Source of the DNA: an uncultured Muribaculaceae bacterium
GTDB taxonomy: Bacteria > Bacillota_I > Bacilli_A > RF39 > UBA660
Direction of reading: 5' to 3'
DNA length: 64,000 nt
NCBI GenBank assembly: GCA_964473455.1
Contig: CAYYQX010000001.1
Coordinates: 133,380 to 197,379 of the forward strand
Positions 3,471-48,082 of the stretch are shown one piece after another (within the stretch, counting starts at the first letter, position 1; the number at the start of each line of letters is the position of its first letter). A program made the position numbers and the translations under genes. Below the pieces are notes generated by a model. It was not told the origin of the DNA. It made no database searches and worked only from the letters and a program-made list of their open reading frames with translations.

Positions 3471-3480
3471 CGTTTTTTTA
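3453..3480. terminator. Bidirectional rho-independent terminator (AAAAACGTTA-ATCAA-TAACGTTTTT)
   Basis: Perfect 10 bp stem with T-run between convergent genes. Confidence 0.5.
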
Positions 3481-3481
3481 T

Positions 3482-10608: not shown

Positions 10609-11331
10609 TTAATTTTCAAGATCAACATTGTGATAAACTTTAACAACATCTTCAATATCATCAAGTAAATTTAATAATTTTTCAAAATCCTCTAAGTCTT
10701 CACCCATTAAATTTACTTTTGATTTTGGAATCATTGTTATTTCATCGATTTCAAAAGTAATGTTTCCAAGGTTTTTAATAACACATTCCTTGATTATGTA
10801 TAAATCTTTTGGTTCAGCATAAATAATTATTTCTTCGTTTTCTTTTTCTATATCTATTGGAGTAATATCATCCGTCAATAAAAATTCTAAAACTTTTTCT
10901 TCATTATTATACTTAAAACCTACAACACATAGATTTTCGTACATAAAACTAGCACTACCACTTACTCCTAGTTTACATTTTGTCTTATTTAGTGCGGCCC
11001 TAATAAGACTTATACTTCTATTAACATTATCTGTCAAACAATCTACAAGAACAGTTGATCCATTTGGTCCGAATATTTCATAACGAACTGGTTCATATGC
11101 TTCACTGATTCCACTATTTGCTTTATCTATTGCTCGCTTAATAATATCTGATGGGATTTGTTCTTTTTTGGCCTTATCAATAATTCGTTTTAAACTGATG
11201 TTTGTATCTGCTTCTGATCCACCATTTTTAGCTGCCATATATATTTCTTTAGCATACATTGAATATAATTTTGCTTTTACTGCCCCTGTCTTTTGAATGC
11301 TTGCTTTTCTAACTTCATACGCTCTTCCCAT
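10609..11331 (-). CDS. YebC/PmpR family DNA-binding transcriptional regulator
   Basis: MGRAYEVRKASIQKTGAVKAKLYS... N-terminus, ~240 aa. Confidence 0.85.
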   Translation of the reverse strand: MGRAYEVRKASIQKTGAVKAKLYSMYAKEIYMAAKNGGSEADTNISLKRIIDKAKKEQIPSDIIKRAIDKANSGISEAYEPVRYEIFGPNGSTVLVDCLTDNVNRSISLIRAALNKTKCKLGVSGSASFMYENLCVVGFKYNNEEKVLEFLLTDDITPIDIEKENEEIIIYAEPKDLYIIKECVIKNLGNITFEIDEITMIPKSKVNLMGEDLEDFEKLLNLLDDIEDVVKVYHNVDLEN

Positions 11332-21699: not shown

Positions 21700-21776
21700 T
21701 GGTGGAGAATAAGGGATTCGAACCCTTGACCCCCTGCGTGCAGGGCAGGTGCTCTAGCCAGCTGAGCTAATTCCCC
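21700..21776 (-). tRNA. tRNA-Ala (anticodon TGC), CCA encoded
   Basis: Cloverleaf read by eye, with the G3:U70 Ala identity pair and a TTCGAAT T-loop. The anticodon loop is CCTGCAC, with C at positions 32 and 33. Confidence 0.75.
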
Positions 21777-21901: not shown

Positions 21902-22774
21902 TTATAAAATAAATTGTCTATCTTTGGGTGAAAGAGAAGCTTTGCCTAACAATAAATCGTTTAATTCAGTAAAACTCTCATTTGGTTGACTATTGTTTAT
22001 AAGATAGCATAAGTCTTTAAATTGTGGTGAAAGACTACAAAGAGCTCCTATCAAATTTGGTGTTTCCTCTTCGACAAATTGGCATAAGTCAAAAAACATT
22101 GCTTTTGCCCAATCTGTTGCTAAGAGTCCTTCAATATATTCTTTTAAGTTACTTACTGTAGTTAAGGATTCAGTTAAACTGTCTTTTTTTGTCGCGTGTG
22201 TTTTTACCAGTAATCCCTGTTTTTCTATAACATCAATATCTACATAATCATAGCTACCTTCGTTAGAAAATTCGCTGTATGCATGTGCGTATGGATAAAA
22301 TTTATCTCTCGCAAAAGATTTCTGATTTATTATTAATTTTTTTAGATGCATTTGATTTTTAAAGCTCACTTCTGTTTTTTCTTCAGTTTCACTTTTTATT
22401 TGAAAGAAGCTACACGTTTGCATCAAACATGAATTTAATTCTTTTTTACCATACTTTAAGCATACACTTATAATTTCTCCGGTTTTTTTATCAAAAATTA
22501 AGCAAATATCCGCTAGAACGGTCCCTGTATTTATAGAATATCTTATCTCTACATTTTGATTACTATAAGATATTTTAATATTTTTTTTAGTTGGTCCTTT
22601 TTCTAAAATAAACTCTAAAACCTCTCCGTTATAAGTTTGAGAGATAAAAATTTCATTTGACTTGCTTTGCATAATTATTGTGTCTAAAGAACTATTGCAA
22701 ATTAGGTTCCATCCAAAACAATTTAAAATTTTATTGTTTATTTTTAATGTTTTATTTAGTTCATCTATTGTCAT
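21902..22774 (-). CDS. Hypothetical protein
   Basis: ORF only; lies between two tRNA genes. Confidence 0.3.
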   Translation of the reverse strand: MTIDELNKTLKINNKILNCFGWNLICNSSLDTIIMQSKSNEIFISQTYNGEVLEFILEKGPTKKNIKISYSNQNVEIRYSINTGTVLADICLIFDKKTGEIISVCLKYGKKELNSCLMQTCSFFQIKSETEEKTEVSFKNQMHLKKLIINQKSFARDKFYPYAHAYSEFSNEGSYDYVDIDVIEKQGLLVKTHATKKDSLTESLTTVSNLKEYIEGLLATDWAKAMFFDLCQFVEEETPNLIGALCSLSPQFKDLCYLINNSQPNESFTELNDLLLGKASLSPKDRQFIL

Positions 22775-22923: not shown

Positions 22924-23007
22924 TGGTGCTCGTGAAGAGAATCGAACTCTTACATCATAGATACACGATTTTGAGTCGTGCGCGTCTACCAGTTCCGCCA
23001 CACAAGC
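22924..23007 (-). tRNA. tRNA-Leu (anticodon CAA), type II with long variable arm, CCA encoded
   Basis: Acceptor GCTTGTG/CACGAGC, anticodon loop CTCAAAA, long variable arm, T-loop TTCGATT. Confidence 0.75.
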
Positions 23008-34086: not shown

Positions 34087-34797
34087 TTAATCTTTTTGTC
34101 TGTGCTTTATTAGCATTTCTTTATCTTCCTTTGAAACTCTAAAGCTATCTCTACATTTACTTATTCCTTTATTAATTGTAAATTTATTTAATTTATGAGT
34201 CTTTAAAAATTCAATCGTCTTTTCTCTTCTTTTAATAAAACATTCACAAAATAACCAAGCATTCATCATATTAACATAGTAATGAGTTTCCTTATAAAAT
34301 TTGTTCATGATTGTATAAATTTTATCAAGATAACAATCTTTTTCTATGTACTTAAATAAGATACTTAATCCAAGCCTTCTAACAAAGGGTTTATCACTTT
34401 TTATATAAGTTAGAACAAGGTCAAAAAAAAGTTCTTCTCTATTCTCAACATCAAAAGACATTAAGTCACAATTTGCCCAGTTATCTATTTTGTTGGCATA
34501 ATCGTCTAAATATTTTTTCATAGTGGTAAAATCTTTTATTTGACATATTAAAAATCCATTTATAGCTTCGTTTTCATAATAGTCACTTAAGTTTAAATCT
34601 AAAAAAGACATAAAGTTTCCTTTAGATATTTCTTTTACGAGCTCTTTTATTTTTGGCGTAGCAATAGCTAAAACCCTTTTTTCAGTATTGATTATTCTTC
34701 TAGCCCACTCAACTTTATCTGGATTGCCAAGACTCTCTAAATATTTTATAAATTCTATTCCATCTTTTTTAGTCCAATTTTCTTTTTTAAGTTCCAC
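34087..34797 (-). CDS. DNA alkylation repair enzyme (AlkD/AlkC-like HEAT-repeat glycosylase family)
   Basis: Length, Trp pattern and KVEWARRII...ATPKIKEL resemble the AlkD family (pfam08713-like). Moderate similarity only. Confidence 0.45.
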   Translation of the reverse strand: MELKKENWTKKDGIEFIKYLESLGNPDKVEWARRIINTEKRVLAIATPKIKELVKEISKGNFMSFLDLNLSDYYENEAINGFLICQIKDFTTMKKYLDDYANKIDNWANCDLMSFDVENREELFFDLVLTYIKSDKPFVRRLGLSILFKYIEKDCYLDKIYTIMNKFYKETHYYVNMMNAWLFCECFIKRREKTIEFLKTHKLNKFTINKGISKCRDSFRVSKEDKEMLIKHRQKD

Positions 34798-34831
34798 ATT
34801 CTCACCTATCTACATTGTATCATTTTAAAAA

Positions 34832-35728
34832 CTAATTGTTTAATTTTTTTGACATAATAGCAATTAACTTTTTAACACTGTAATTAGGAATCTTTTTGTT
34901 CATTATAACAACACCAATAAATCTTTTTGGAACATGAGGTACAACTTCTATTTCATATAAAAAGTTTTTTTCTAATTCAATTTTAATAAATTCTTTTGTA
35001 GCATACCCAATTCCAAAACCCGCTCTAACTAAATCCATTATTAAATTATAACTTACTACCTCTAATTTTGGTTTTAAACAAACGTTATTGCTTTTTAAAT
35101 ATTTATTTAAATATACCCTAGTATTTGAAGGTTCTTTTTGGAAAAGCAAAGGAAAATTTTCTAAATCTTTTAAGTTTATTTTCCCTTTTGTCAAATTATA
35201 ATATTTTTTATTTCCAACGAAAATATCTTGTACATCTAAAACTGGTATTATTTTTAAATCTTTATCCTCATTCATTGGTAAATTTAAAATTAACATATCA
35301 AGATTTCCGTTTCGTAACTCTTTGATTAAAGTGTCAGTAAGATTGTTAACTATTTGAATGTCTATTTTTGGATACGTTTCGTGAAAAGTTTCCAAATACG
35401 GAATTAAAACGTGTCTACTAACTGTTGTTGATGCGCCGATTCTGATAATACCACTATCTAAATTTTTTAAATTAGTTATGGCATTTTCTCCGTTATTAAT
35501 ACTCTCAATTCCGCTTTTTACATATTCATATAATACTTTTCCTTCTTCTGTTAATGTTACGCCTCTTTTAGTTCTTATGAAGAGGCTAACCCCCATTTGT
35601 TCTTCTAGTTTTTTTATTTGAAAAGAAACTGCTGGTTGTGAGATAAAAAGGTTAACTGAAGCTAACGAGATACTACCACTGTTTGCTACTACATAAAAAA
35701 CATGATACAAATCCAAACTAACATTCAT
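34832..35728 (-). CDS. LysR family transcriptional regulator
   Basis: N-terminal wHTH (SISLASVNLFISQPAVSFQIKKLEEQMG) and a LysR substrate-binding domain. Confidence 0.8.
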   Translation of the reverse strand: MNVSLDLYHVFYVVANSGSISLASVNLFISQPAVSFQIKKLEEQMGVSLFIRTKRGVTLTEEGKVLYEYVKSGIESINNGENAITNLKNLDSGIIRIGASTTVSRHVLIPYLETFHETYPKIDIQIVNNLTDTLIKELRNGNLDMLILNLPMNEDKDLKIIPVLDVQDIFVGNKKYYNLTKGKINLKDLENFPLLFQKEPSNTRVYLNKYLKSNNVCLKPKLEVVSYNLIMDLVRAGFGIGYATKEFIKIELEKNFLYEIEVVPHVPKRFIGVVIMNKKIPNYSVKKLIAIMSKKLNN

Positions 35729-35795
35729 GTTATAAACACTCCTTATATCTAATATAAATAATATATATTATACTTATATCACAAATTGTCATATA

Positions 35796-36347
35796 ATGCA
35801 AATGGAGGGGAAAAATATGGCAAATTCAAAACAGTGGTGGGAAGTAGAAGACATAGCTACTATGACAGCGCTCATGGAAGAAGATCTTAAGCGTGATGCA
35901 GAAACTAAGAAAGTTGAAGTTTCACCAGAAACAGCTAGGCTTTTTTACGAACAAATAAAAGCCTTTGCTTTGTCAAAAGAGAATGTAAAATATTCAAAGG
36001 AATTATACGATATACGTGATTTATATATAAAGGAAGAAGAAAGAGCAGAATATTTTACTGAGGACGGCTATTTAGAATTTCAAAATGAAGAAGGACAAAC
36101 TGTTGCAATTAAATTTAGTCGTTTTCATGCACATAGATCTAACGGATATGGATGTTTAAATGGCAATCCTTGTCTCTTTGTAACTATTAGCATTATGGGT
36201 GAAACCATTTGGGAACTACACGTTAAACACGGCACTATGTATTATGAGGGATGGGCAACTGAAGACAAGCTTCCAAAGATGATTGATTCAGCACTTTTAA
36301 GTAACAATGAAGGTTATCAAAAAATCCTACAGCCTTATCATGCTTAA
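35796..36347 (+). CDS. Hypothetical protein (divergently transcribed from LysR)
   Basis: ORF only. Confidence 0.3.
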   Translation: MQMEGKNMANSKQWWEVEDIATMTALMEEDLKRDAETKKVEVSPETARLFYEQIKAFALSKENVKYSKELYDIRDLYIKEEERAEYFTEDGYLEFQNEEGQTVAIKFSRFHAHRSNGYGCLNGNPCLFVTISIMGETIWELHVKHGTMYYEGWATEDKLPKMIDSALLSNNEGYQKILQPYHA

Positions 36348-36379
36348 ATGAGTTTCTTAAATCTTAGTAAATAAAAACA

Positions 36380-36420
36380 TAATAAAAAAATAGTTTTGGT
36401 AATACCCTAACTATTTTTTA
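36380..36420. terminator. Putative bidirectional terminator (AAAATAGTT...AACTATTTT hairpin)
   Basis: Inverted repeat with T-runs between convergent genes. Confidence 0.35.
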
Positions 36421-36449
36421 TATTGGTTTTATTTTTCTGTATTTTTATT

Positions 36450-37106
36450 TTAATCCTTTAATATATATGGCATATCTTCCATCACTTTGTCTATATTAAA
36501 TCTTCCGTTACCTACTGGATAATAAACAGAATAAGTATCATAAATATCTTTATTAATTATCTTTTTAAACTTCTTTTTTCTTACTTGTGAGACGTTTATT
36601 TTTTCTTTTAAAAACAAACTGCTTACTTGATTTCCAAAACAAATTATTTTTTTTGGATTAACTATACTTATTTCTTCATCTAACAATGATAGATACTCTT
36701 TGAATTGCGAGTCTTTTAAAGGCCTGGCGTCTTTTTGTGTGCATTTACCTAAATTAGTTATGTATATACTTTTGCTTTTGACATGATTATAAATTATTTC
36801 AGCAAAGGAAGGTGTCCATTCAGAGTTTTTTAGCTTCTTAATTTCATCATAAATGTTATTATCAATTAATTTCAAATCATTTAAAATCTTCCAAATTGTT
36901 TTAGTACCTATCCAAGGACTTTTAATCCCCTTCCATTCTTTACTCGCAGCAATATTTTTGCCAGTTGGGTTCATAAATATTAAACACAACTCAGGATTTT
37001 TTGTTTCTCCACCGTTCAGTATGGCGTCTAGGTTCTTATCGCCGTATTTGTTTTGTAATTTTATATATTTTTTGTTTAACTCATTTAGTTCTTCGCTTTT
37101 TTTCAT
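36450..37106 (-). CDS. Uracil-DNA glycosylase superfamily-like protein (putative)
   Basis: FMNPTG resembles the GMNPGP/GINPGL motif of SMUG/MUG-type UDGs. The assignment is tentative. Start set at MKKSEEL; the upstream GTG extension is repeat sequence. Confidence 0.3.
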   Translation of the reverse strand: MKKSEELNELNKKYIKLQNKYGDKNLDAILNGGETKNPELCLIFMNPTGKNIAASKEWKGIKSPWIGTKTIWKILNDLKLIDNNIYDEIKKLKNSEWTPSFAEIIYNHVKSKSIYITNLGKCTQKDARPLKDSQFKEYLSLLDEEISIVNPKKIICFGNQVSSLFLKEKINVSQVRKKKFKKIINKDIYDTYSVYYPVGNGRFNIDKVMEDMPYILKD

Positions 37107-37121
37107 AATAACACCAATATA

Positions 37122-37242
37122 AATTATAACATAAAAAATGAGCACAAATAGTAAACCATTTATGCTCAGTAGACGAACTTAATAAATTAAATGCGTCTAG
37201 GTAGTACTATACGTTGTTAAAGTTTCTTTGTCAACCTTTTTT
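37122..37242. repeat. ~122 bp direct repeat, copy 1 (family 2), containing a compensated hairpin, a T-run and TGTTATAAT
   Basis: Near-identical to 38404-38527. Contains TGAGCACAAAT-N8-ATTTATGCTCA. Confidence 0.8.
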
Positions 37243-38371
37243 CCGAAACTTTTAAAACTTCTTTTATTATTTTTTTCAGTTGCGTAGCACTATCAATGTA
37301 TTCTTGAATAATTTGTTTAAAAAAATCGTCAACATTTATTTCAAACCTATGAGAAAATTTTCTTTTGCTAATTTCGGCTAAAAGCTCGTTGCTTAGTTTA
37401 TATCTATAATAATGTTCAAAGAAAGCTTCGGAATTCATTTTTTCTATAAAAGCACTTGTATTGTCGAATTGAATAGTAATGATGGCAAGATCATTTATCA
37501 TTTGATCTAAGCCTTCTACAAATTTTTCCAATGTTTCAGGACTGTTTTCAGCAATTTTCATAATAGTCGCTTTAATAAATGGCAACTCTTCTAACAATAT
37601 CTTATAACTGCCAACTAAAAGATTATGTGCTTCTATTTGATCCGGATAAATAAACATCAAAGAGTATTCTTGATCACTTGGTGGAACTACTCCTGTTATT
37701 CGATTATCTTTAGTTTTAAAATTGAAGTTTTCATAGTGAAAATTATGATTTCTAGTTAATAAAGAAAGCAAATACTGAAGCGCTAATTGGTTCATATATT
37801 CTTTATTGTCCAAAAAAATTTCTACATTAAACATAAAAAAGAAATTGTATATTGCCATTCCATAGTTAATATACTCATTTAAAATTGAAGGTTCTGCAAA
37901 ATCACAAGATAAGCTATACTTATAAATATCATCTTGTATACTGTTGACGTGGCAGCCGTTATGAAAGCAATAAATTACTAAATCATTAATAGGATTGTTT
38001 TTTGATAAATTATTTCTTAGATACTCCATCAAATTTAACGTTTTTTCGCCCTCTTCTAAATATGATGGAACAATAACACCTTTTTCATAGGCTTTGGGTT
38101 GCAATTCTGTTATTCCTTTACAAATGGCAAGCCTGTATTGAGGAGAGTTGGGTTCAAAATATGTTCTTGCAATATAAGAACTAAAAACTTCAGAAAAAGT
38201 AAACATAATTGTACTATTTGGTTTTGTTTTTGATAATGGTTTGAAAATATATTTTTTGCCATCAAAAATATAAAAAGGAAATTCTTTTTTTGATTGCCCG
38301 GCTGCTTTTGTATCAACAGAAATGTTCCCACTTCTATCCTTATAGTCTAATTCTGTTATAGTATCAAACAT
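37217..38371 (-). CDS. Hypothetical protein (gene flanked by family-2 direct repeats)
   Basis: ORF only. Start taken at MFDTITEL, because the upstream in-frame codons are repeat sequence. Confidence 0.3.
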   Translation of the reverse strand: MFDTITELDYKDRSGNISVDTKAAGQSKKEFPFYIFDGKKYIFKPLSKTKPNSTIMFTFSEVFSSYIARTYFEPNSPQYRLAICKGITELQPKAYEKGVIVPSYLEEGEKTLNLMEYLRNNLSKNNPINDLVIYCFHNGCHVNSIQDDIYKYSLSCDFAEPSILNEYINYGMAIYNFFFMFNVEIFLDNKEYMNQLALQYLLSLLTRNHNFHYENFNFKTKDNRITGVVPPSDQEYSLMFIYPDQIEAHNLLVGSYKILLEELPFIKATIMKIAENSPETLEKFVEGLDQMINDLAIITIQFDNTSAFIEKMNSEAFFEHYYRYKLSNELLAEISKRKFSHRFEINVDDFFKQIIQEYIDSATQLKKIIKEVLKVSEKRLTKKL

Positions 38372-38403
38372 ATTAAAATTTTCCACATTATTCCCCCTAA
38401 AAA

Positions 38404-38527
38404 AATTATAACATAAAAAAATGATCACAAATAGTAAACTATTTATGATCAGTAGACGAACTTAATAAATTAAATGCGTCTAGGTAGTACTATACGGCAT
38501 TAAAGATTCTTTGTCAATCTTTTTTTA
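38404..38527. repeat. ~122 bp direct repeat, copy 2 (family 2)
   Basis: Near-identical to 37122-37242. Its hairpin is TGATCACAAAT-N8-ATTTATGATCA, with compensatory changes relative to copy 1. Confidence 0.8.
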
Positions 38528-39089
38528 TGCTTTTTATATATTGATCTATTTCTTCTCTTTCACTTTGAAACAAAATAGGCAAAAAGCCTGCCACAATCGC
38601 ATCTTTATCTACATCAATTCTACTATACAAACCATTACTTAAATATCCTGTTATTCCTTGATCTTGTTTATTATTTACAACTCCTGTTATTGCTTCAATT
38701 ATTTTATTTAATGACCCTCCCTTTTGGGCAAAATCAAACATAGTTTGACTTATTCTTATACTAATTGATTTGCCAACAGATTTTTCACCTAGCAAATCTT
38801 CTATCGCACAATATGTAACTATAAAAGGTAATCCCATTTCGTCTAAAGCAAAGCCACCTTCAATGGAACAAAGATAATCATATTTTATATTATTATCAAT
38901 AGCCCGTTTTTTTAACTCTTGGTTTCTGTTATCTGCTCCTCTAATAATCTCACTATCTATTGGTTTACTACTAACACCAGAATCGACTTTAACAGTTATA
39001 ATCTCATATTCAACTATACCGAGTTTTTCTAGTGCTTTTTCAAGAGCTAATTTTTTGCCTGGATTTTCGCTTCCTAATAATATTTTCAT
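38514..39089 (-). CDS. Inosine/xanthosine triphosphatase (YjjX/DUF84 family, non-canonical NTP house-cleaning)
   Basis: VKVDSGVSSKPIDSEIIRGADNR parallels the E. coli YjjX region [26 protein letters not shown] (recalled from memory); ~190 aa. Confidence 0.5.
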   Translation of the reverse strand: MKILLGSENPGKKLALEKALEKLGIVEYEIITVKVDSGVSSKPIDSEIIRGADNRNQELKKRAIDNNIKYDYLCSIEGGFALDEMGLPFIVTYCAIEDLLGEKSVGKSISIRISQTMFDFAQKGGSLNKIIEAITGVVNNKQDQGITGYLSNGLYSRIDVDKDAIVAGFLPILFQSEREEIDQYIKSIKKD

Positions 39090-39177
39090 AAATTCACCTA
39101 CCAATAATTATTCCCTTTGAAGCACTATTATAACACAAAAAAACAATAAATATATTTTAAAATTAACACTTACTATA

Positions 39178-39687: not shown

Positions 39688-41433
39688 ATGATTAAAATAT
39701 TAAAAAGGTTAGAAAAGAAAGAATTTGGATTAATTGCTATTATTATCGTCTTCATTGTCGCGCAAGTTTGGTTAGACCTTAAATTACCAGACTATATGGC
39801 AGAAATTACGACTTTAATTCAGCAAAGTAACCCTACTGTATCAAAGATTTTAACTCCTGGATTCTATATGTTATTGTGTGCTTTTGGAAGCTTAGCTTTT
39901 TCGGCTATTGCCGGTTTTTTTGCCGCAACAGTTGCGGCAAGTTTTTCAAAGAAAATAAGAGGAGATGTTTTTAGAAAAGTTGAAAGTTTTGGCATGGAAG
40001 AAGTCAAAAAGTTTTCTACTAGTAGTTTGATAAACCGAACTACGAACGATATAACTCAAGTTCAAACTCTAGTAGTAATAGGCCTTCAAATGATTATTAA
40101 ATCCCCTATTATGGCTATTTGGGCAATTAGTAAAATGGCAAGCAAGAGTTGGCAATGGAGCGCTATTACAGGTGGCGCTGTAATGGTTTTAATCTTGATG
40201 ATTACCGTTCTAGTTTTATTTGCTCTACCAAAATTTAAAAAAATTCAAACTTTAACAGACAACCTTAATATGGTAACAAGAGAAGGATTAACTGGCATTA
40301 GAGTTATTAGAGCATTTAATGCTGAAGGCTATCAAGAAAACAGATTTGAAAAAGCAAACAAAGAATTAACAAAAAACAATATGTTTACTCAACGATTAAT
40401 GGCTATAATGTTTCCGGTGATGACATTTACTATGTCTGTTTTAACTTTAGCGATATATTTTGTTGGAGCATATTTAATTGACGCAGCCAATATGGCAGAT
40501 AAGATTGGACTATTTAGTAATATGATTATTTTTTCTTCATATGCTATGCAAGTTGTAATGGCATTTATGATGCTAGTCTTAATTTTTATTATTTACCCAA
40601 GATCAAGTGTTTCTGCTAAAAGAATTGTAGAAGTTTTAAATAGTGAATCTAGTATTAAAGACGGTACTATAACAAAAAGTAAAATCAAGGGAACTGTTGA
40701 ATTTAAAGACGTCTCTTTTAAATATCCTGATGCAGAAGAATATATTTTAAAAGATATTTCTTTTACGGCTAATAAAGGAGAAGTTATTGCCTTTATCGGT
40801 TCAACAGGTTCAGGAAAATCAACACTAATTAATTTAATACCAAGATTTTATGATGTTACTGAAGGAAAAGTTCTTGTTGATGGAGTTGATGTTAGAGACT
40901 TTAAACAAGAGTACCTTTATAATAAAATTGGATATATCCCTCAAAAAGCCGTAATATTTAACGATACGGTAAAAAATAACGTTGCTTATGGAAGTAAAGT
41001 TAACGAAAAAGAAATAAAAAAAGCTATTAAAATCGCGCAAGGAACTGAGTTCGTTGAAAAGATGGCAAACCAATATGAATCTCACGTTGCTCAAGGAGGA
41101 AACAATATATCTGGTGGCCAAAAACAAAGATTAGCTATTGCTAGAGCTATTGCTAGAAACCCGGAAATATATATATTTGATGATTCTTTTTCAGCACTTG
41201 ACTACAAAACAGATTATAACCTAAGAAAAGAGTTGAAGCGTTATACAAAAGAAGTGACAACTTTAATTGTTGCTCAAAGAATTGGCACAATTAAAAATGC
41301 CGATAAGATTATTGTTTTAGATAAAGGTAGTATTGTGGGGATCGGTACTCATAATGATTTATTAAAGAATTGCCAAGTATATAAAGAAATCGCACTATCA
41401 CAGTTATCAAAGGAGGAGTTGACAAATGAATAA
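39688..41433 (+). CDS. ABC transporter permease/ATP-binding protein, type I exporter half-transporter with consensus ATP site
   Basis: Six TM helices, then Walker A GSTGSGKST, signature ISGGQKQR, Walker B IFDDSFSALD. Confidence 0.85.
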   Translation: MIKILKRLEKKEFGLIAIIIVFIVAQVWLDLKLPDYMAEITTLIQQSNPTVSKILTPGFYMLLCAFGSLAFSAIAGFFAATVAASFSKKIRGDVFRKVESFGMEEVKKFSTSSLINRTTNDITQVQTLVVIGLQMIIKSPIMAIWAISKMASKSWQWSAITGGAVMVLILMITVLVLFALPKFKKIQTLTDNLNMVTREGLTGIRVIRAFNAEGYQENRFEKANKELTKNNMFTQRLMAIMFPVMTFTMSVLTLAIYFVGAYLIDAANMADKIGLFSNMIIFSSYAMQVVMAFMMLVLIFIIYPRSSVSAKRIVEVLNSESSIKDGTITKSKIKGTVEFKDVSFKYPDAEEYILKDISFTANKGEVIAFIGSTGSGKSTLINLIPRFYDVTEGKVLVDGVDVRDFKQEYLYNKIGYIPQKAVIFNDTVKNNVAYGSKVNEKEIKKAIKIAQGTEFVEKMANQYESHVAQGGNNISGGQKQRLAIARAIARNPEIYIFDDSFSALDYKTDYNLRKELKRYTKEVTTLIVAQRIGTIKNADKIIVLDKGSIVGIGTHNDLLKNCQVYKEIALSQLSKEELTNE

Positions 41434-43231
41434 TCAAAATAAGCCAAGACCATTTGGTCCTCCAGGAATGGGTGGTGGAGAAAAAGCCAAGAACTTTAAA
41501 AAATCGATAGCTCGATTAGTAAAATATTTAAAACCTTATTTTTTCATTATTTTTGTAGCTATTTTTTTTGCTATTGCTAGTTCGATATTCTCTATAGTTG
41601 GTCCTAGCAAATTAAAGGAAATAGTTGATGTAATAACTAATGGCTTTATGATCAAAATAGATCTTGATAAAATAAAGGATATTGCTCTTTTCTTAGCAAT
41701 TATTTATGCTTTAAGTTGCTTGTTTGGATACATACAAGGCTTTATTATGGCTACAATAACTAATAAGTTCTCAAAAAAACTTCGCAGTGAGTTATCCTTA
41801 AAAATCAATAAATTACCACTAAAGTTTTTCGATAATAATAGTTATGGAGATACTTTATCAAGATTTACAAACGATGTTGATACAATGGGTCAAACCATGA
41901 ACCAAAGCATCGGATCTCTTGTTAGTGCAATAACACTTCTGATTGGTGTATTAATTATGATGTTTGTAACCAATTGGATTATGGCCTCAACAGCAATTGT
42001 CGCAACTTTTATTGGCTTTGCTTTAATGGTTTTAATTCTCTCAAAATCACAAAAATATTTTGCGATGCAGCAAAAAGAATTAGGTAATATTAATGGTCAC
42101 ATTGAAGAAATATATTCTGGATTAAATGTTGTTAAAGTATATAACGGAATTAATCAATCAAATGAGAAGTTTGATAAAATAAATGATCAGTTATATATAA
42201 GTGCTAAAAAAAGCCAATTTATGTCCGGCTTGATGCACCCTATTATGAGCTTTATTGGTAATTTTGGTTATCTTGCTGTTTGTATTGTAGGAGCTGTTTT
42301 AGTTATCAACAATACAATAACTATTGGAACAATTGTCTCTTTTATGATTTATGTCAGATTATTAACCGGTCCTCTAATTAATTTAGCCCAAGCAGCTACA
42401 CAATTACAGTCAACTGCAGCCGCTAGTGAAAGAGTATTTGAGATTTTAGATGAAAAAGAGATGAGTAAAGACTCTAAAAAACAAGTATTGGACGTTAATA
42501 ACATAAAAGGTAATATCGAATTTGAAAATATTACGTTTGGATACAATGAAGATAAAATGGTAATAAATAACTTTAGTGCCAAAGCAAAGAAAGGGCAAAG
42601 AGTTGCGATTGTTGGGCCAACTGGAGCTGGAAAAACGACAATTGTAAATCTGCTTATGAAATTTTATGATATTAATTTTGGAGATATCAAGATTGATAAT
42701 GTTTCTATTAAAGATTTGACTAGAGAAAATATTCATGACTTATTCATTATGGTTTTACAAGATACTTGGTTATTTAGTGGGACTATAAAAGATAATATTG
42801 TGTATAATAAAAAAAATGTTTCAGATGAACAAGTAAAAGAAATTTGTGAAATTGTTGGTATAGATCACTTTATAAATACTCTACCTGATGGCTACGATAC
42901 CATTTTAAGTGATGCAGAAAGCATATCAGCCGGAGAAAAACAGTTGATTACTATTGCTAGAGGAATGTTAGAAAAAAAACCATTCTTAATTTTTGATGAA
43001 GCAACTAGTTCTGTTGACACAAGAACTGAACAATTGGTTCAAAAGGCAATGGAAAAATTAACCGAAGGAAGAACATCGTTTATAATTGCTCATCGTTTAT
43101 CGACTATCAAAAATTCTGACTTAATATTGGTAATGAAAGATGGCAATGTTGTAGAGCAAGGTAACCATCAAGAATTAATTGAAAAAGACGGGTTTTATGC
43201 TGAACTTTATAATTCACAGTTCCAAAATTAA
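41426..43231 (+). CDS. ABC transporter permease/ATP-binding protein, half-transporter with degenerate signature (heterodimer partner)
   Basis: Walker A GPTGAGKTT; signature ISAGEKQ instead of LSGGQ; Walker B LIFDEATSSVD. Translationally coupled to the upstream gene. Confidence 0.85.
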   Translation: MNNQNKPRPFGPPGMGGGEKAKNFKKSIARLVKYLKPYFFIIFVAIFFAIASSIFSIVGPSKLKEIVDVITNGFMIKIDLDKIKDIALFLAIIYALSCLFGYIQGFIMATITNKFSKKLRSELSLKINKLPLKFFDNNSYGDTLSRFTNDVDTMGQTMNQSIGSLVSAITLLIGVLIMMFVTNWIMASTAIVATFIGFALMVLILSKSQKYFAMQQKELGNINGHIEEIYSGLNVVKVYNGINQSNEKFDKINDQLYISAKKSQFMSGLMHPIMSFIGNFGYLAVCIVGAVLVINNTITIGTIVSFMIYVRLLTGPLINLAQAATQLQSTAAASERVFEILDEKEMSKDSKKQVLDVNNIKGNIEFENITFGYNEDKMVINNFSAKAKKGQRVAIVGPTGAGKTTIVNLLMKFYDINFGDIKIDNVSIKDLTRENIHDLFIMVLQDTWLFSGTIKDNIVYNKKNVSDEQVKEICEIVGIDHFINTLPDGYDTILSDAESISAGEKQLITIARGMLEKKPFLIFDEATSSVDTRTEQLVQKAMEKLTEGRTSFIIAHRLSTIKNSDLILVMKDGNVVEQGNHQELIEKDGFYAELYNSQFQN

Positions 43232-43311
43232 TAATTCAAAAACTTGATATTTTCATATCAAGTCTTATATTTCAATTATGACATAGAATCAAAGGGGGTT
43301 CCCAAATTTTT
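43231..43311. repeat. Family-1 ~85 bp intergenic repeat, copy A (variant; perfect palindrome CTTGATAT-TTTC-ATATCAAG)
   Basis: Shares ...cttgatattttcata...agaatcaaagggggttcccaaattttt with the other copies. Lies between the convergent ABC operon end and the GNAT gene stop. Confidence 0.7.
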
Positions 43312-43313
43312 GT

Positions 43314-43793
43314 TTAAATATGCTTCATCACTTCCAAATTTCTGTCTGAATAATTATTTCTATAATAAAAACTCTTAGCCTTTTCGTTATAACCAAAAAC
43401 TTCTATTAATATTGCCTTACAGCCAACCAATTTAAAATGAGTTTCCATCTCATCCATTAATTGTCTTCCTATTCCTTTTGCTCTACAATTACTAGAAACA
43501 ATTAATTCTGTTATTCTTCCTCGTTTTGGCGCTCTAAACTCATAAGTGTTTTGTTCTTCATTATTAATTAAGCCTACTATTAACCCAATAGCTTTGTCAT
43601 TTTCAACAGCTAAAAACATTTTACCTTCAAAATCATTTATTTCTTTTATAGTCTTTTTAAATTCAATCTCCCTGTATTCATCATTAATTATGTTGTAGCC
43701 ATCTTTATCTATTGAAACTATATATTCTTGTAATTCAACCAATAAATCTTTTATGTCTTCGTCATATTTTGTATTATAATCAATTATATTCAT
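43314..43793 (-). CDS. GNAT family N-acetyltransferase (cassette 6)
   Basis: Acetyl-CoA-binding motif RAKGIGRQLM. Confidence 0.7.
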   Translation of the reverse strand: MNIIDYNTKYDEDIKDLLVELQEYIVSIDKDGYNIINDEYREIEFKKTIKEINDFEGKMFLAVENDKAIGLIVGLINNEEQNTYEFRAPKRGRITELIVSSNCRAKGIGRQLMDEMETHFKLVGCKAILIEVFGYNEKAKSFYYRNNYSDRNLEVMKHI

Positions 43794-43810
43794 TATTGCA
43801 CCTCTATATT

Positions 43811-43894
43811 TATTATATCAAAAAACTTGATATTCTCATACCAAGTTCAACTAATTCATATTTGGCATGGAATCAAAGGGGATTCCCAAATTTT
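43811..43894. repeat. Family-1 ~85 bp repeat, copy B (full length)
   Basis: attatatcaaaaaacttgatattctcataccaagttcaactaattcatatttggcatggaatcaaaggggattcccaaatttttt. Confidence 0.85.
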
Positions 43895-44482
43895 TTATTT
43901 CTTATTTTCCACTACAGCTTTTTTATATTTATCATATTCTTTTCGTAAATAATCAAAGGTAACTTCTTTTTTTAATACGACAGGTAATTTCAATAAATAT
44001 TCATAAATTGGCTTTTCATCTCTATATGTTTTCTTATTTTCCCAATAATATTTGGCATTTATTATTGTATCGTAGTTTGACCATCCTCTTATTAAATTCA
44101 TATCATGTTTTTCATAATAATCATATTCTACTTCATAGACTTTAAAGAATTCAAAATCCAATTCCTTTTTTTCAATAAATTGAAATAATCCTTCAATATC
44201 AAAAGCAAAAAAGGATTGGAATCGAGATAGTTTATCAGGATAGTTAATTATTCTTTCATATTCAAATATAATATCCATCCCACTACTTTTTGTATCGTAT
44301 TCATTTAAAAAGTAACGTCTACCATGGAGTGATAACTTGTCATCATATCTTTTTTTAATAATTTCTAAATTTTCTTTAAATACTGGCTTCAAATAGTCAT
44401 ATTTGTCTATATACTCTATTTTTTGATTTTCTTGTAATAAACCGCTTCTATCAATATGATAAAGTTTCATATTTTTCACCAC
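43895..44482 (-). CDS. Hypothetical protein (cassette 5)
   Basis: ORF with an AAGTGGTGA RBS. The stop codon abuts the repeat. Confidence 0.3.
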   Translation of the reverse strand: MVKNMKLYHIDRSGLLQENQKIEYIDKYDYLKPVFKENLEIIKKRYDDKLSLHGRRYFLNEYDTKSSGMDIIFEYERIINYPDKLSRFQSFFAFDIEGLFQFIEKKELDFEFFKVYEVEYDYYEKHDMNLIRGWSNYDTIINAKYYWENKKTYRDEKPIYEYLLKLPVVLKKEVTFDYLRKEYDKYKKAVVENKK

Positions 44483-44577
44483 TTTCTCTTTTATTATAAC
44501 AAAAAACTTGATATTTTCATACCAAGTTCGACTAATTCATATTTGGCATGGAATCAAAGGGGTTTCCCAAATTTTCA
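44483..44577. repeat. Family-1 repeat, copy C (full length; -10 variant TGTTATAAT)
   Basis: ttattataacaaaaaacttgatattttcataccaagttcgactaattcatatttggcatggaatcaaaggggtttcccaaattttca. Confidence 0.85.
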
Positions 44578-44976
44578 TTTATCTTTTTTTTCGATCTTTA
44601 TATGCTTAGCCATATCACCAATTCTTATTGTCTTATCGCCATCACCAGAAATTTCTGTCGGCTCAATTTCTAGTTTTTTCTGTTTAGAACCAAAGATGTT
44701 ATTTGAAAATATAGAAGACATATATTCTGATATATATGCTGTTTCACAAACACACATTTTTTCATAAACTTCAGTAACGTTTAATCTAGCTTTTACTATT
44801 TCTAGATTGCCTAAATTTTCTTTTGTTTCAGGGTCTATAATAGTTTCTCCTTTGCCGATAATTTGCATCATATCGCCTCGGGATATACCATTATTTGAAC
44901 CACCATTTACTATTAACGAAGTATCATTAATTATTTTTATTACTTTAAAATCATTGCTCATTTTCTTTCCCTCCAT
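44575..44976 (-). CDS. Hypothetical soluble protein (cassette 4, second gene)
   Basis: ORF; overlaps the upstream membrane-protein gene by 26 nt. Confidence 0.3.
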   Translation of the reverse strand: MEGKKMSNDFKVIKIINDTSLIVNGGSNNGISRGDMMQIIGKGETIIDPETKENLGNLEIVKARLNVTEVYEKMCVCETAYISEYMSSIFSNNIFGSKQKKLEIEPTEISGDGDKTIRIGDMAKHIKIEKKDK

Positions 44977-45385
44977 TTATATTACCTATGAAATTTTTAA
45001 TAATTGTATTAGTCACTTGCAATTTCTGTTCTTTTGTAATTTTGTCAAATGATATTAATACAGCCATAGTATCAAAAAAAAATTTTTGAAGCATTTCATT
45101 TTTATATATTTCGTTTTTTAACTCTATTTGATTTTCTTTAAAATTATTACTTAAAGCTTGATAATTCATATATTGTTTTTCATATTCTTTATAAAATTTG
45201 TTTACATTTATAACATATATTATCCCATTAATAATCAAACCCAAAATAATTGAACCAATAATAAATGTTATCTTGTAAGAATCAGGAATCTTATTCCAAA
45301 AACTAAACAAAGCAAGAACATTTACTATTGATATAATAAATGTTATCTTCCCTGTAAAAAAACGAGGTTTTTCTCTTATAACCAT
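44951..45385 (-). CDS. Hypothetical membrane protein with two TM helices and a coiled-coil tail (cassette 4, first gene)
   Basis: ORF with an AGGTGA RBS. Hydrophobic segments at residues ~12-30 and ~38-60. Confidence 0.3.
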   Translation of the reverse strand: MVIREKPRFFTGKITFIISIVNVLALFSFWNKIPDSYKITFIIGSIILGLIINGIIYVINVNKFYKEYEKQYMNYQALSNNFKENQIELKNEIYKNEMLQKFFFDTMAVLISFDKITKEQKLQVTNTIIKNFIGNINGGKENEQ

Positions 45386-45620
45386 AAAATCACCTACTGT
45401 ATTAAAACTTTAATATCCTTTTTCTTTATATATCGATATTATATCATTTTTACATAATATAATCCATACTTTCTATTTGCAAAGTTTCAATTCATAGACT
45501 TATGTTCTTCTATGGTTTTCTTAGACAATACTTTTTTCACTTCTCGTTATTATAATAAAAAGTATGATACTCCATTACCATTGTAATTCCGTACCTTTTT
45601 AATATTCCAGCCCATATTTG

Positions 45621-45692
45621 CTTGAAACTTTTAATTATATTGTAAAATTAAATATGAACGTGGATTTCCAAGTTTTACAATATTTATTTTCA
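45621..45692. repeat. Family-1 repeat, degenerate copy D
   Basis: Begins aattatattg, then ...cgtggatttccaagttttacaat, which resembles ...catggaatcaaaggggattcccaaatttt; weak. Confidence 0.35.
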
Positions 45693-45696
45693 AATA

Positions 45697-46191
45697 TTAA
45701 TGTTCTAAATGTTTATGCACTGAATGGGGTAATATTTCAATCTTTTCATCTAAAGATAAGTCATCTCTTTTAATGATGTGTGCAATGCATGATTTCTTAA
45801 TTTTAGCTTTATTTTTAATTAAATAGTCAGCTGATGGTTTCATATATTGAACTATCATTTCAAAGGAACATTTTTCTTCTTCTAATAAAGATAATATTTG
45901 TTCATAAGATAATTCCTTTAATATTTTTATCTTATTTGTTGTAAAATAATATCCTTTTTCATACCCGTCATTTCTGGCTTTGAATTTACATATCTCACCA
46001 AGAGGTGTAACTATACAAACTCTAATATTTTTACTATTACTAAAATTAATTAGTGTTGAACTTATATGCTCTGCATAATGAAACCATTCCCAATTATCAA
46101 TGTTATCGGTTTGATACGTTTTCCCTATCTCAAATTGATAACCGCCATATCCCATAAATTCGCTGTCAAAAGCTTTATAGTATTTAATCAT
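45697..46191 (-). CDS. Hypothetical protein (cassette 3)
   Basis: ORF with a GGAGG RBS. Confidence 0.3.
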   Translation of the reverse strand: MIKYYKAFDSEFMGYGGYQFEIGKTYQTDNIDNWEWFHYAEHISSTLINFSNSKNIRVCIVTPLGEICKFKARNDGYEKGYYFTTNKIKILKELSYEQILSLLEEEKCSFEMIVQYMKPSADYLIKNKAKIKKSCIAHIIKRDDLSLDEKIEILPHSVHKHLEH

Positions 46192-46274
46192 TTAGTACCT
46201 CCAATATACAACTATATTTTACTTTATCTTTCAATCAATCAAATATAAGCATATTGTTTTTCTTTTTTCCACCG

Positions 46275-46303
46275 CATGGAATCAAAGGGGATTCCCAAAT
46301 TTT
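46275..46303. repeat. Family-1 repeat, truncated copy E (3' hairpin half only)
   Basis: catggaatcaaaggggattcccaaatttt immediately after the stop of cassette 2. Confidence 0.6.
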
Positions 46304-46703
46304 ACATTTTTTTGTGATTATTTATATCGTTTAAACCTTCTTCATCAACAATACCAAATGTCTCTCTCAAAAAGTCCATTTCACTATGTTTTAAATTAGA
46401 AAATACAGCTCTATTTATTAAAACACCAGTGTGTTTGTTAAATCTCCAAGGAATATATTTATTTTCCTCGTAGACATTTAGATTACCATCAACAATTTGG
46501 GTACCTATAATCTTGCATTGAGTTGCATAGGCCTCTTTGCTTTCTTTTCCTTCATAATCTACAATTAGATTAAATCCGTAATGCTCTGTACCAAGCATAA
46601 CACCGTTATCTAAAGAAAGATTTTCTTCATTAGTAATCATCACGTTATCTTTAGTACTTAGTTTTAATGTAATTGGATCTAACATTTTTGGTTCTAAAAT
46701 CAT
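46302..46703 (-). CDS. Hypothetical protein (cassette 2)
   Basis: ORF. Start placed at the ATG after an AGAGGTG RBS; the listed GTG is 3 codons upstream. Confidence 0.3.
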   Translation of the reverse strand: MILEPKMLDPITLKLSTKDNVMITNEENLSLDNGVMLGTEHYGFNLIVDYEGKESKEAYATQCKIIGTQIVDGNLNVYEENKYIPWRFNKHTGVLINRAVFSNLKHSEMDFLRETFGIVDEEGLNDINNHKKM

Positions 46704-46722
46704 TATAAACACCTCTATAATA

Positions 46723-46806
46723 ATTATATCAAAAAACTTGATATTTAGATACCAAGTTCAACTAATTTATATATGGCATGGAATCAAAGGGGATTCCCAA
46801 ATTTTT
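46723..46806. repeat. Family-1 repeat, copy F (full length)
   Basis: attatatcaaaaaacttgatatttagataccaagttcaactaatttatatatggcatggaatcaaaggggattcccaaattttt. Confidence 0.85.
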
Positions 46807-46828
46807 AATTTACTCTATATTTTTTGCA

Positions 46829-47848
46829 TTATAATAAATTTTTCATATCATAATCAACTTTATATATAGTATTGTCTAAATAACTAACAATCACTAGTTC
46901 TTTATCAGTATTATATATAAATGTAGCAGCAGTAATACTATTATCATCCTCGATGGTCATATTTCTAATTGATAATTTATAATCATCTGTATGATACTGT
47001 AAAATCTTTAAGATATCTTCTTTATTCTCTATTTTTAATTTTTCTAAAAGGTCTTCACTTTTTTGCAATCTGAATTTTGTATTTGACCCAGGCTCCGCAA
47101 TTGGGAATCCTACTTCTTTTCTAGTAAGATGATTGGAGTGAGCAAACTTATCTTTGACTTCTAATACAGATAAATTATTTAGTCTCCATTCAATTGAATA
47201 AGCTCTTTTGGCGTTTGTATCAATAATATTAACATTACAGCCGCTCGCTGCATCCTCAATATTTAAATGTTCTAATACTTCTTCTATATTTTTACATTCA
47301 ATTAAATTTCTTAAGATAAACCATGTAGGAATGCCGTTAATATTTTTATGGTGAATATATATATAATTACAAGTAAAAATTAAACCATGACTATTCCAGC
47401 TGAAAGTAGAACCTGGCAATGTATCATTACAATAATATTCACAAAAGAAGCCATAATTCGTTATATACTTTATTAAACCTGTATTTTTTAATGAATAAGG
47501 TCCGTCTTCGTTATGACCTCCAATTATTTTGTTACCAATCTTTGCTATAACATCAGTACATCTTTCCCTTTCAGTATATATTTCATAACAAATAAATAAT
47601 AAATAAGCATCTCTGTCTACTTTTGCCCCATCAGCTTTACCATAAGCTTCTTGCAAATATTCGGGATACAATTTTTCTAGCTTTCCTTTTACTATATTCA
47701 AAGTGTCTTTTATTAAAGTGTTTTCAAGTAATTCTCTTGTTATTTTGCAGTTTTCTTGTATATCATCCTTATAAATTTCACCCAATTTATATGAACGTGA
47801 ATACAAATCACCCTCAACTTGACCAATATATAACTTATCAAATCTCAT
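46829..47848 (-). CDS. Hypothetical protein (cassette 1; possible hydrolase, weak)
   Basis: ORF with a GGTGGTGA RBS. GGHNEDG and Cys-rich segments vaguely recall Ntn-hydrolase/C45-like proteins. No confident assignment. Confidence 0.3.
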   Translation of the reverse strand: MRFDKLYIGQVEGDLYSRSYKLGEIYKDDIQENCKITRELLENTLIKDTLNIVKGKLEKLYPEYLQEAYGKADGAKVDRDAYLLFICYEIYTERERCTDVIAKIGNKIIGGHNEDGPYSLKNTGLIKYITNYGFFCEYYCNDTLPGSTFSWNSHGLIFTCNYIYIHHKNINGIPTWFILRNLIECKNIEEVLEHLNIEDAASGCNVNIIDTNAKRAYSIEWRLNNLSVLEVKDKFAHSNHLTRKEVGFPIAEPGSNTKFRLQKSEDLLEKLKIENKEDILKILQYHTDDYKLSIRNMTIEDDNSITAATFIYNTDKELVIVSYLDNTIYKVDYDMKNLL

Positions 47849-47863
47849 ACTATCACCACCATT

Positions 47864-47914
47864 ATTATATCAAAAAACTTGATATTTTCATACCAAGTTC
47901 AACTAATTCATATT
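47864..47914. repeat. Family-1 repeat, copy G (promoter/terminator half) fused directly to the tRNA-Trp 3' end
   Basis: attatatcaaaaaacttgatattttcataccaagttcaactaattcatatt runs into tggca. tggca is both repeat sequence and the complement of the tRNA 3'-TGCCA. Confidence 0.8.
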
Positions 47915-47988
47915 TGGCAGGGGCGGAGAGAATTGAACTCCCAACCACGGTTTTGGAGACCGCTATTATACCATTTAACTACGCCCCT
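47915..47988 (-). tRNA. tRNA-Trp (anticodon CCA), CCA encoded
   Basis: AGGGGCGTAGTTAAATGGTA...GGTCTCCAAAACCGT...GGGAGTTCAATTCTCTCCGCCCCTGCCA closely resembles Bacillus tRNA-Trp. Anticodon loop CTCCAAA. Confidence 0.85.
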
Positions 47989-48082
47989 AAAAAATGCAGC
48001 AAATAAAGTTTATCATACCCATATACAAAAGTCAAAAACTATTATATAATATTTCTAGGTTTTTAAATTAAAGGAGAATAAA

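Follow-up and report, generated by a model that had tools for sequence, protein, structure and literature searches.

A tRNA-Trp-anchored array of self-contained gene cassettes in uncultured Firmicutes-type bacteria and its possible assembly at a TGCCA junction

Introduction

Sedentary chromosomal integrons, such as the Vibrio cholerae superintegron with its VCR attC sites, are among the described systems closest to the locus presented here. Complete integrons were absent from all the Firmicutes and Tenericutes genomes surveyed, and none was found in Actinobacteria (Cury et al. 2016, PMC4889954). The locus lies in a 64,000-nt stretch of DNA, hereafter the window (positions 133,380 to 197,379 of contig CAYYQX010000001.1, assembly GCA_964473455.1, deposited as an uncultured Muribaculaceae bacterium), in which a row of small genes, the cassettes, extends from the 3' end of tRNA-Trp and is punctuated by copies of an approximately 85-bp element, the unit. 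We tentatively favour the reading that this is a tRNA-Trp-anchored chromosomal cassette array which is exchanged horizontally and built by recombination at a TGCCA junction, although we place its probability slightly below one half. A search of the full-text literature found no description of such an array. Related loci are denoted by numbers preceded by L.

The likeness to sedentary integrons is extensive. It encompasses co-directional, unrelated cassettes, mostly of a single open reading frame (ORF), a structured and homogeneous repeat that follows each cassette and may overlap its stop codon, a primary site fixed at one end while the most diverged repeat copy lies at the other, an order and content that vary between relatives, and a cargo rich in acetyltransferases and unknowns. 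However, the array has no adjacent intI, no attI and neither the R/L-box architecture nor the GTTRRRY core of attC, its primary site is formed by a tRNA CCA end, its cassettes each have a promoter and a terminator and do not depend on Pc, and its host belongs to a Gram-positive-type lineage. Three of the four features that define an integron (intI, the attC core and promoterless cassettes) are missing, and only the variable array of unrelated ORFs is present. No intI was found in the window, among ORFs of at least 130 aa, or in the related loci. The identity of the unit with attC was rejected, as GTTGAAC occurs in a minority of 19 units, which otherwise carry GTCGAAC, ATGAAC or ATAAAAC, and the invariant core is CCATG instead. 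The sequence-only reading that preceded this analysis had set the array apart from attC arrays on account of its promoters.

Clusters of attC sites lacking integron-integrases, known as CALINs (Cury et al. 2016, PMC4889954), are defined by two or more bona fide attC sites and likewise have no linked integrase, but the present units show no hallmarks of attC, and in every informative locus a tRNA serves as the anchor of the array. The tycheposons of Prochlorococcus are multi-gene elements that encode their own tyrosine recombinase and leave partial tRNA copies between elements (bioRxiv 10.1101/2020.12.28.424599). As in tycheposon islands, a specific tRNA seeds a hypervariable island with distal displacement and adaptive cargo, but the cassettes here are single ORFs, their repeat does not represent part of a tRNA, and a recombinase was found neither in the cassettes nor in the flanks. 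Phage morons are autonomous promoter-gene-terminator modules that are scattered singly in prophages with no common separating element; the cassettes share their transcriptional autonomy, but they are separated by a common element, are not accompanied by phage genes and match no phage record. The pdif modules of Acinetobacter plasmids are Xer-dependent and flanked by inverted XerC/XerD sites, and the minimal mobile elements of Neisseria lie between conserved genes without repeats. Both are small modules exchanged without a module-borne recombinase, as the cassettes appear to be, but neither forms a tRNA-anchored tandem array with a common unit.

The unit and its junction with tRNA-Trp

The interval between the stop codon of a convergent ABC exporter gene (43231) and tRNA-Trp (47915-47988) spans 4.7 kb and holds seven minus-strand ORFs in six transcription units. 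The ORF calls agree with the sequence-only reading, which had described six minus-strand units here, one of them with two genes. That reading had also counted five full copies of the element, one truncated and one degenerate; the total of seven stands, but the make-up is four full copies (A, B, C and F), one of the trailer only (G), one of the T-part only (E) and one degenerate (D), all listed in Table 1 below.

A full unit consists of a 31-nt hairpin ending in CCATGCCA, here called the T-part, and a copy of the 3' trailer of tRNA-Trp, whose components are a spacer, an intrinsic terminator, an extended -10 promoter and a ribosome-binding site (RBS). The T-part (AAATTTGGGAATCCCCTTTGATTCCATGCCA) lies on the gene strand, a few to approximately 25 nt past the stop codon, and is composed of an A/T tract, a 6-bp hairpin (GGAATC/GATTCC) and CCATG(CC)A, within which CCATG is the sole run that is invariant across all 19 aligned units. 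The spacer AATATGAATTAGTYG comes next and leads, in every trailer, to a predicted second hairpin of 10-11 bp with a GAAA loop and six or seven T residues, which is the form of an intrinsic terminator. The terminator sequence differs between types (L004, L005 and L024), while the hairpin and the T-run are kept. After the T-run, every full unit carries TGNTATAAT (the extended -10), an RBS and the next start codon.

tRNA-Trp itself ends in ...CCCCTGCCA and continues with the spacer, terminator, -10 and RBS that the units also contain. In every genome compared, the homology between the tRNA flank and the units begins exactly at TGCCA, which bears out the earlier observation that the array starts precisely at the tRNA 3' end. 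The unit can therefore be described as a T-part and a tRNA-Trp 3' trailer fused at their common five bases. Unit G, the trailer of tRNA-Trp itself, displays the order TGCCA, spacer AATATGAATTAGTTG, hairpin AACTTGGTAT-GAAA-ATATCAAGTT (found by folding), T6, TGATATAAT and RBS, and was matched in the promoter scan together with its TG extension. TGCCA is the sole sequence that the T-part shares with tRNA-Trp, and across genomes the identical T-part is fused at TGCCA to at least four different trailers.

The conservation of the T-part exceeds that of the tRNA. Among the window, L004, L005 and L008, the T-part shows 0-1 differences in 31 nt, whereas tRNA-Trp differs at 7-17 of 74 positions, and tRNA-Trp identity among the genomes that share the T-part amounts to 77-91%. 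The type-1 trailers of the same four loci are 86-98% identical. Such strict conservation would speak for a sequence-specific partner or for a pool of cassettes shared horizontally, and so would the coincidence of the last five bases of the T-part with the tRNA end, which has a probability of approximately 1 in 1000.

The remaining copies differ from the full unit in various ways. Unit A is the most diverged full copy, having lost its -10 region, and its terminator abuts the stop codon of the exporter gene. Unit D comprises T-part-like and trailer-like remnants with a longer spacer between them, and in unit E the homology breaks at ...CCATGC, beyond which unrelated promoter sequence follows. 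Apart from the divergence of the distal unit A, no gradient relates unit identity to the distance from the tRNA.

The scan for promoters gave a score of 10 of 12 with the TG extension, the extended -10 is conserved, and the module has the composition expected of a putative intrinsic terminator followed by a sigma-70 extended -10 promoter. The earlier proposal that every cassette has a promoter of its own is thus plausible, TGNTATAAT and an RBS lying upstream of the next ORF in full units. The same compact layout (T-run, TGNTATAAT, 8-12 nt, RBS and ATG) is found at many housekeeping genes of the window, which indicates that the unit promoter is the ordinary promoter form of the organism. Examples of this layout occur at 2063, 4008, 18778, 34026, 37131, 38413, 39135, 56305 and 56377; it entails very short leaders in the window genes, and the preceding T-run is often the tail of a terminator. 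Read on the plus strand (43869-43896 and 46780-46807), the T-part forms a terminator-like hairpin, GGAATCAAAGGGGATTCC, followed by the T-run CAAATTTTTT, and cassettes may therefore be shielded from antisense read-through.

The shared TGCCA also raises the question of an RNA function. The T-part could be an RNA mimic of the tRNA-Trp 3' end and trailer, such that cassette mRNAs would be 3'-processed or stabilized by the tRNA maturation machinery and the array itself would be secondary. This would fit the presence of TGCCA followed by the tRNA's own trailer, the retention of the hairpin in L012 despite its altered sequence and the invariable location of the element in the 3' untranslated region (UTR) on the sense strand. 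However, a search of the array with all families of Rfam 15 at E <= 10 scored only the tRNA (RF00005, 47918-47988, 63.7 bits), the remainder having E >= 0.6, far under the gathering scores, and at gathering thresholds only tRNAs were found in the window and five related loci. ARAGORN called no tRNA at any T-part. Moreover, the stem is followed by six nucleotides, AUGCCA, rather than NCCA, and thus departs from the canonical RNase P minihelix; most point mutations in the hairpin lack a compensating change, and cassette turnover would be left unexplained. We consider an RNA mimic improbable. A T-box-like reading of UGGC on the opposite strand was rejected as well, as that strand carries no gene and yielded no T-box match.

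Confinement of the element and its occurrence in related loci

The repeat search of the window found a 102-nt family with sub-families at the array. Both halves of the element gave five matches each at no more than three mismatches, all of them within the array, where shuffled sequences led to an expectation of 0.00. A covariance model (CM), R1, was built from 19 unit copies; its search of the entire 64 kb, with filters off, returned six matches at E <= about 3e-5, all within 43228-47956, and outside the array the best value in the window was E = 0.07, with no further copy. R1 finds units in arrays only; the unit-less relatives L019, L021 and L023 gave no match, and neither did loci that proved to be chance matches.

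To extend the comparison, a T-part pattern of 20-22 bases was scanned against 185,579 species genomes and JGI metagenomes. The scans returned nine stretches, five with a whole unit (L004, L005, L008, L009 and L010) and four that were chance matches in high-GC genomes, and homologues of two cargo proteins led to further arrays (L012-L017, L024, L025 and L018). The element is thus present in L004, L005, L008, L009, L010, L012-L017 and L024/L025 and decayed in L018, which amounts to at least seven further public loci. No match to the unit was found by blastn among 72,556 plasmids and 50,697 phage records, and two pattern scans of viral contigs gave none. The possibility that the repeat is a generic dispersed element, raised with the initial description, does not hold for the sequences covered, since the window contains no extra copies and the true collection matches lie only in tRNA-Trp-linked arrays.

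These observations also bear on whether the locus is a classical integron array or CALIN, or else a dispersed REP/BOX/MITE-like or IS200/IS605-derived (PATE) repeat. Unrelated ORFs are each followed by a structured repeat, and subterminal hairpins flank each cassette beside a fixed pentanucleotide, TGCCA. On the other hand, neither intI nor a conserved GTTRRRY/RYYYAAC core was found, the cassettes have their own promoters, and the element is neither dispersed nor present in the plasmid and phage collections. With regard to IS200/IS605-like single-strand transposition with TGCCA as target, the geometry is attractive, but the two hairpins are unrelated in sequence, one being a sequence-variable terminator, unlike the ends of IS200/IS605 elements, and no TnpA was found in the window; this candidate is therefore disfavoured. 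Altogether, explanations of this group are very improbable. An Xer/dif-like 11-6-11 reading of the T-part was also discarded, because a crossover in the hairpin spacer would not yield the TGCCA junction.

tRNA-Trp adjoins the array in all seven loci in which the contig reaches that far (the window, L004, L005, L008, L010, L012/13 and L018). The genes beyond the tRNA vary, encoding PrsA in the window, TrpRS and RNase J in L005, SleB and a LysM amidase in L004 and L018, and a glucosaminidase in L012. Two of the arrays have a class Ic aminoacyl-tRNA synthetase gene at their border (L005 1783-2929 and L024 2826-3941), and in L005 the TrpRS-like gene is divergent from tRNA-Trp. In L012, which lies on a 417-kb JGI contig, tRNA-Trp is followed by at least 13 unit-flanked cassettes; here the T-part is more diverged but the hairpin is retained, and stop codons lie inside it. 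An (AAT)n microsatellite was observed in the unit immediately after TGCCA, with seven repeats in L024 (~905-930) and six in L025 (~210-230), its length being polymorphic between these samples. In L004, an insertion of approximately 900 bp (2620-3520), with a reverse-oriented 99-aa ORF weakly matching Bflower, separates tRNA-Trp from the type-1 trailer. The displaced trailer is preceded by TTCAATGTTTCTGCTCTGCCA, which has the look of a degenerate tRNA 3' end, a resemblance that is not significant (1289 of 5000 shuffles were as good) and serves as a hint only.

The constant anchor at the tRNA 3' end in seven of seven informative loci, the separate insertion in L004 and the published model of tRNA-seeded islands growing by successive integrations (bioRxiv 10.1101/2020.12.28.424599) would all be compatible with scars of repeated integrase-mediated insertions of small elements at the tRNA-Trp 3' end, the integrase genes having since been lost. 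This history appears unlikely, marginally less so than the RNA mimic. The repeats are not partial tRNA copies, and the notion that the T-part is a decayed partial tRNA-Trp or an att scar was ruled out, given that 3162 of 5000 shuffles gave equally good alignments. Integrase fragments were not seen, the T-part is strongly conserved, and single-ORF cassettes of 0.4-1 kb with intact, highly conserved units are unlike decaying elements.

All the genomes concerned are uncultured, and the public labels of the related contigs ('Ignavibacteriales' and 'Muribaculaceae') conflict with their gene content and GC content; the hosts constitute a small clade of anaerobic bacteria of the Firmicutes type with a low GC content of about 25-29%. 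At least one relative is represented by a 1.49-Mb contig. The window proteins are present in the Logan assemblies of SRR8925806 and SRR8925805, the former of which appears in a catalogue that covers full-scale biogas plants (PMC7842101). Independent Logan unitigs from this sample match the array at 100% identity along its length but are interrupted inside the repeats; one of them (L026) covers 44533-46803, from unit C to unit F, without interruption, and an independent Logan contig (L002) spans the ABC exporter gene, unit A and the GNAT gene.

Cassette turnover and the proposed recombination at TGCCA

The interval between tRNA-Trp and the distal flank is not invariant across relatives, as an objection to the initial reading would have had it. 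L008 and L010 share a gene of the Lsa family of ABC-F proteins with 82.6% nucleotide identity, whereas the interval from tRNA-Trp to this gene holds four cassettes in L008 and one in L010, with none in common; the units of these two loci are 86-90% identical, compared with the 82.6% of the flanking coding sequence. Cassettes that are common to several arrays change their order and neighbours. The DUF2441 cassette occurs in four arrays, with 76-85% protein identity to the window copy and four different pairs of neighbours. In L012 it is directly followed by a homologue of the 136-aa protein of cassette 2 (10685-11092, 62% identity, also a cassette), while in the window the order is reversed and three genes lie between the two.

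A hypervariable tRNA-anchored locus is thus supported, because the element is not dispersed and the interval varies. As to how cassettes are gained and lost, we presume that they would enter, leave and be shuffled by recombination with a crossover at or next to TGCCA, which is pointed to by the fact that these five bases are the sole sequence common to the tRNA CCA end and every T-part. In this scheme, the tRNA CCA end would be the primary site, while the site borne by the cassettes would be the T-part. Insertion beside the tRNA would push older cassettes distally and carry the original terminator of the tRNA to the far end, and unit A fits such displacement, as it is the most diverged copy and abuts the exporter stop codon. 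Once installed, cassettes would be expressed as insulated units, each bounded by a promoter and a terminator. The recombinase would be encoded outside the vicinity of the array.

Several observations weigh against this reading. Neither a transposase nor a recombinase of the tyrosine, serine or HUH type was found in the window or in approximately 100 kb of related loci, and circular cassettes, empty sites and alternative junctions were not observed. The array of L012 is unchanged in five JGI samples (L013-L017 are the same array from other samples). Cassette orthologues are also found at ordinary unit-less sites with the same promoter style: those of the C45 gene of cassette 1 (76-80% identity) in L021, following the [FeFe]-hydrogenase operon, and in L023, which also holds an orthologue of the GNAT gene of cassette 6 (69% identity), in the order GNAT, a 153-aa gene and C45. 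Approximately two-thirds of the 85-bp element is ordinary terminator and generic promoter/RBS punctuation. Covariation in the T-part hairpin is modest, with 81.6% of cells paired and most point changes uncompensated (both hairpins together reach 86.5%, with a covariation score attained by 7 of 500 shuffles). Signs of concerted evolution, seen as unit trailers that best match the tRNA trailer of their own locus in L012 (six of seven units) and L005 (unit u1), are also explained by generic homologous recombination. Finally, since the unitigs break in the units, the order across the remaining full-length copies rests on the original assembler.

The same observations may be accommodated without any capture machinery. 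The locus would then be an accessory island in which terminator-promoter modules are kept alike by gene conversion and turnover proceeds by RecA-type homologous recombination with the DNA of relatives, the T-part being a 3'-UTR, antisense-terminator or stability element and the tRNA gene together with the units providing portable homology. We regard this as a real possibility, though less probable than recombination at TGCCA. It is favoured by the failure to find a recombinase, by a trailer that amounts to a terminator and a generic promoter, by the terminator-like score of the opposite-strand T-part with its hairpin and T-run, by the resemblance of L012 and L005 units to their own tRNA trailer, and by the co-directionality of all cassettes, which repeat-mediated exchange would maintain. 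However, it leaves unexplained the identity of 31 non-coding nucleotides between genomes whose tRNA-Trp genes are just 77-91% identical, the ending of the T-part in the tRNA's TGCCA (five of five bases, approximately 1 in 1000 by our own estimate of chance) and the fixed point at which different trailers are fused. In addition, arms of 30-90 nt are short for efficient RecA exchange.

A more far-reaching version of recombination at TGCCA is that the locus represents an undescribed capture platform, with the tRNA-Trp CCA end as primary site, the 31-nt hairpin ending in CCATGCCA as an attC analogue, self-expressed cassettes, a recombinase encoded in trans or co-opted, and a cassette pool shared horizontally between genera. 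This we hold to be doubtful, about as probable as turnover by homology. The sequence-only reading had noted that no integrase or transposase is visible in the window, and this is borne out, as all ORFs of at least 130 aa were read, those not recognized were scanned against Pfam, and none encodes a recombinase, integrase or transposase. Its suggestion of accretion at a tRNA site, or of a hypervariable accessory locus, is supported, whereas that of a dedicated cassette-capture system is plausible but unproven, there being no recombinase and no circular or empty-site junctions.

Cassette cargo and neighbouring genes

The features of the array are collected in Table 1. The sequence-only reading had considered all the cargo except the GNAT acetyltransferase to be without recognizable function, and this does not apply to the C45-family, DUF7666 and DUF2441 proteins, the last with an ADP-ribosyltransferase (ART)-like fold; the protein of cassette 2 is indeed without a family, and its true start is probably an ATG a few codons inside the annotated ORF. 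The sole family match in cassette 4 is a weak one to Pfam FlgT_C (3.4e-5), below the cut-off. PADLOC returned no defence-system match for any of the seven cargo proteins of the window.

Table 1. Positions of the cassettes, units and bordering genes of the tRNA-Trp array in the window
Feature	Position	Strand	Basis and remarks
Convergent ABC exporter gene	41426-43231	plus	ORF; Pfam ABC_membrane and ABC_tran; distal array boundary
Unit A, full, distal	43228-43313	minus	CM 86.8 bits
Cassette 6, GNAT acetyltransferase, 159 aa	43314-43793	minus	Pfam Acetyltransf_1, 3e-16
Unit B, full	43812-43897	minus	CM 101.2 bits
Cassette 5, DUF2441 protein, ADP-ribosyltransferase-like fold	43895-44482	minus	
Unit C, full	44493-44578	minus	CM 100.8 bits; in unit alignment
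Cassette 4, two-gene unit	44575-45385	minus	144-aa membrane protein (44951-45385) overlapping 133-aa protein (44575-44976)
Unit D, degenerate	about 45549-45680	minus	Repeat search, 74%; CM just 15 bits, E 3.4; weak copy
Cassette 3, DUF7666 protein, 164 aa	45697-46191	minus	Pfam PF24703, 6.3e-12
Unit E, T-part only	46275-46306	minus	T-part motif, 0 mismatches; CM 46229-46306, E 3.3e-5
Cassette 2, 136-aa protein without family match	46302-46712	minus	ORF
Unit F, full (T-part and trailer)	46723-46808	minus	CM 99.9 bits, E 6.6e-19; in unit alignment
Cassette 1, C45-family autoproteolytic acyltransferase/hydrolase, 339 aa	46829-47848	minus	Pfam AAT, 6.8e-26; NCBIfam NF040521, 128.9 bits
Unit G, tRNA-Trp 3' trailer alone	47862-47919	minus	P-part motif, 0 mismatches; CM 47864-47956, E 2.8e-9
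tRNA-Trp (anticodon CCA)	47915-47988	minus	ARAGORN; encoded 3' end ...CCCCTGCCA; array anchor

Among the products encoded across the arrays are several GNATs, three or four NUDIX and two MazG-like proteins, kinases resembling APH (one of them with similarity to APH(6)), a PNP/UDP-type phosphorylase, an S-adenosylmethionine (SAM) methyltransferase, an adenylosuccinate-synthetase-like protein, DUF2268, CYTH, DUF218, DUF7666 and C45 acylase proteins, and many proteins without a family. Judging from these predicted functions, the theme appears to be mostly small-molecule modification, nucleotide house-cleaning and resistance-like activities, and not phage defence.

The Lsa-family ABC-F gene, of the ribosomal-protection type, lies just distal to the arrays of L010 (865-2403) and L008 (1-1499, minus strand); its score of 716 bits is under the Lsa cut-off of 750 and above the cut-off for generic ribosomal-protection ABC-F proteins. 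In L010 it is preceded by a leader of approximately 250 nt with a 10-codon ORF (MKTYNMYGAN), a layout typical of attenuation-controlled resistance ABC-F genes; the leader is absent in L008.

A second stretch of accessory-looking genes is located in the window at 34087-39104, upstream of the MarR/ABC operon. It encodes a DNA-alkylation-repair protein, a LysR regulator, a UDG-superfamily protein, an NTPase_I-T protein and two proteins without a Pfam match, of 183 aa (35796-36347) and 403 aa (37217-38428). Homologues of the DNA-alkylation-repair protein are found in or beside arrays in L012 (15054-15758) and L024 (4122-4838). Elsewhere in the window, a 290-aa ORF without a Pfam match (21902-22774) lies between tRNA-Ala (21700-21776) and tRNA-Leu (22924-23007).

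Conclusions

Integrons are the standard model for the collecting and shuffling of single genes, and the tRNA-Trp locus displays the same population-level behaviour in a Firmicutes-type clade, using parts that differ from those of integrons, namely the 3' CCA of a tRNA, a conserved hairpin of short length and cassettes that drive their own expression. If a recombinase does act at the TGCCA junction, the locus would constitute an independent invention of cassette capture and would provide a simple scaffold for the engineering of insulated gene arrays. If, on the other hand, turnover is purely homology-driven, the terminator-promoter unit and the tRNA gene would function as portable homology for the exchange of genes between diverged genomes. 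In addition, to judge from the cargo, anaerobic digesters and sediments may hold a reservoir of functions that modify drugs and xenobiotics, exemplified by the GNAT, APH-like, NUDIX, MazG, ART-fold DUF2441 and C45 acylase proteins and by the Lsa-type ABC-F gene beside two of the arrays.

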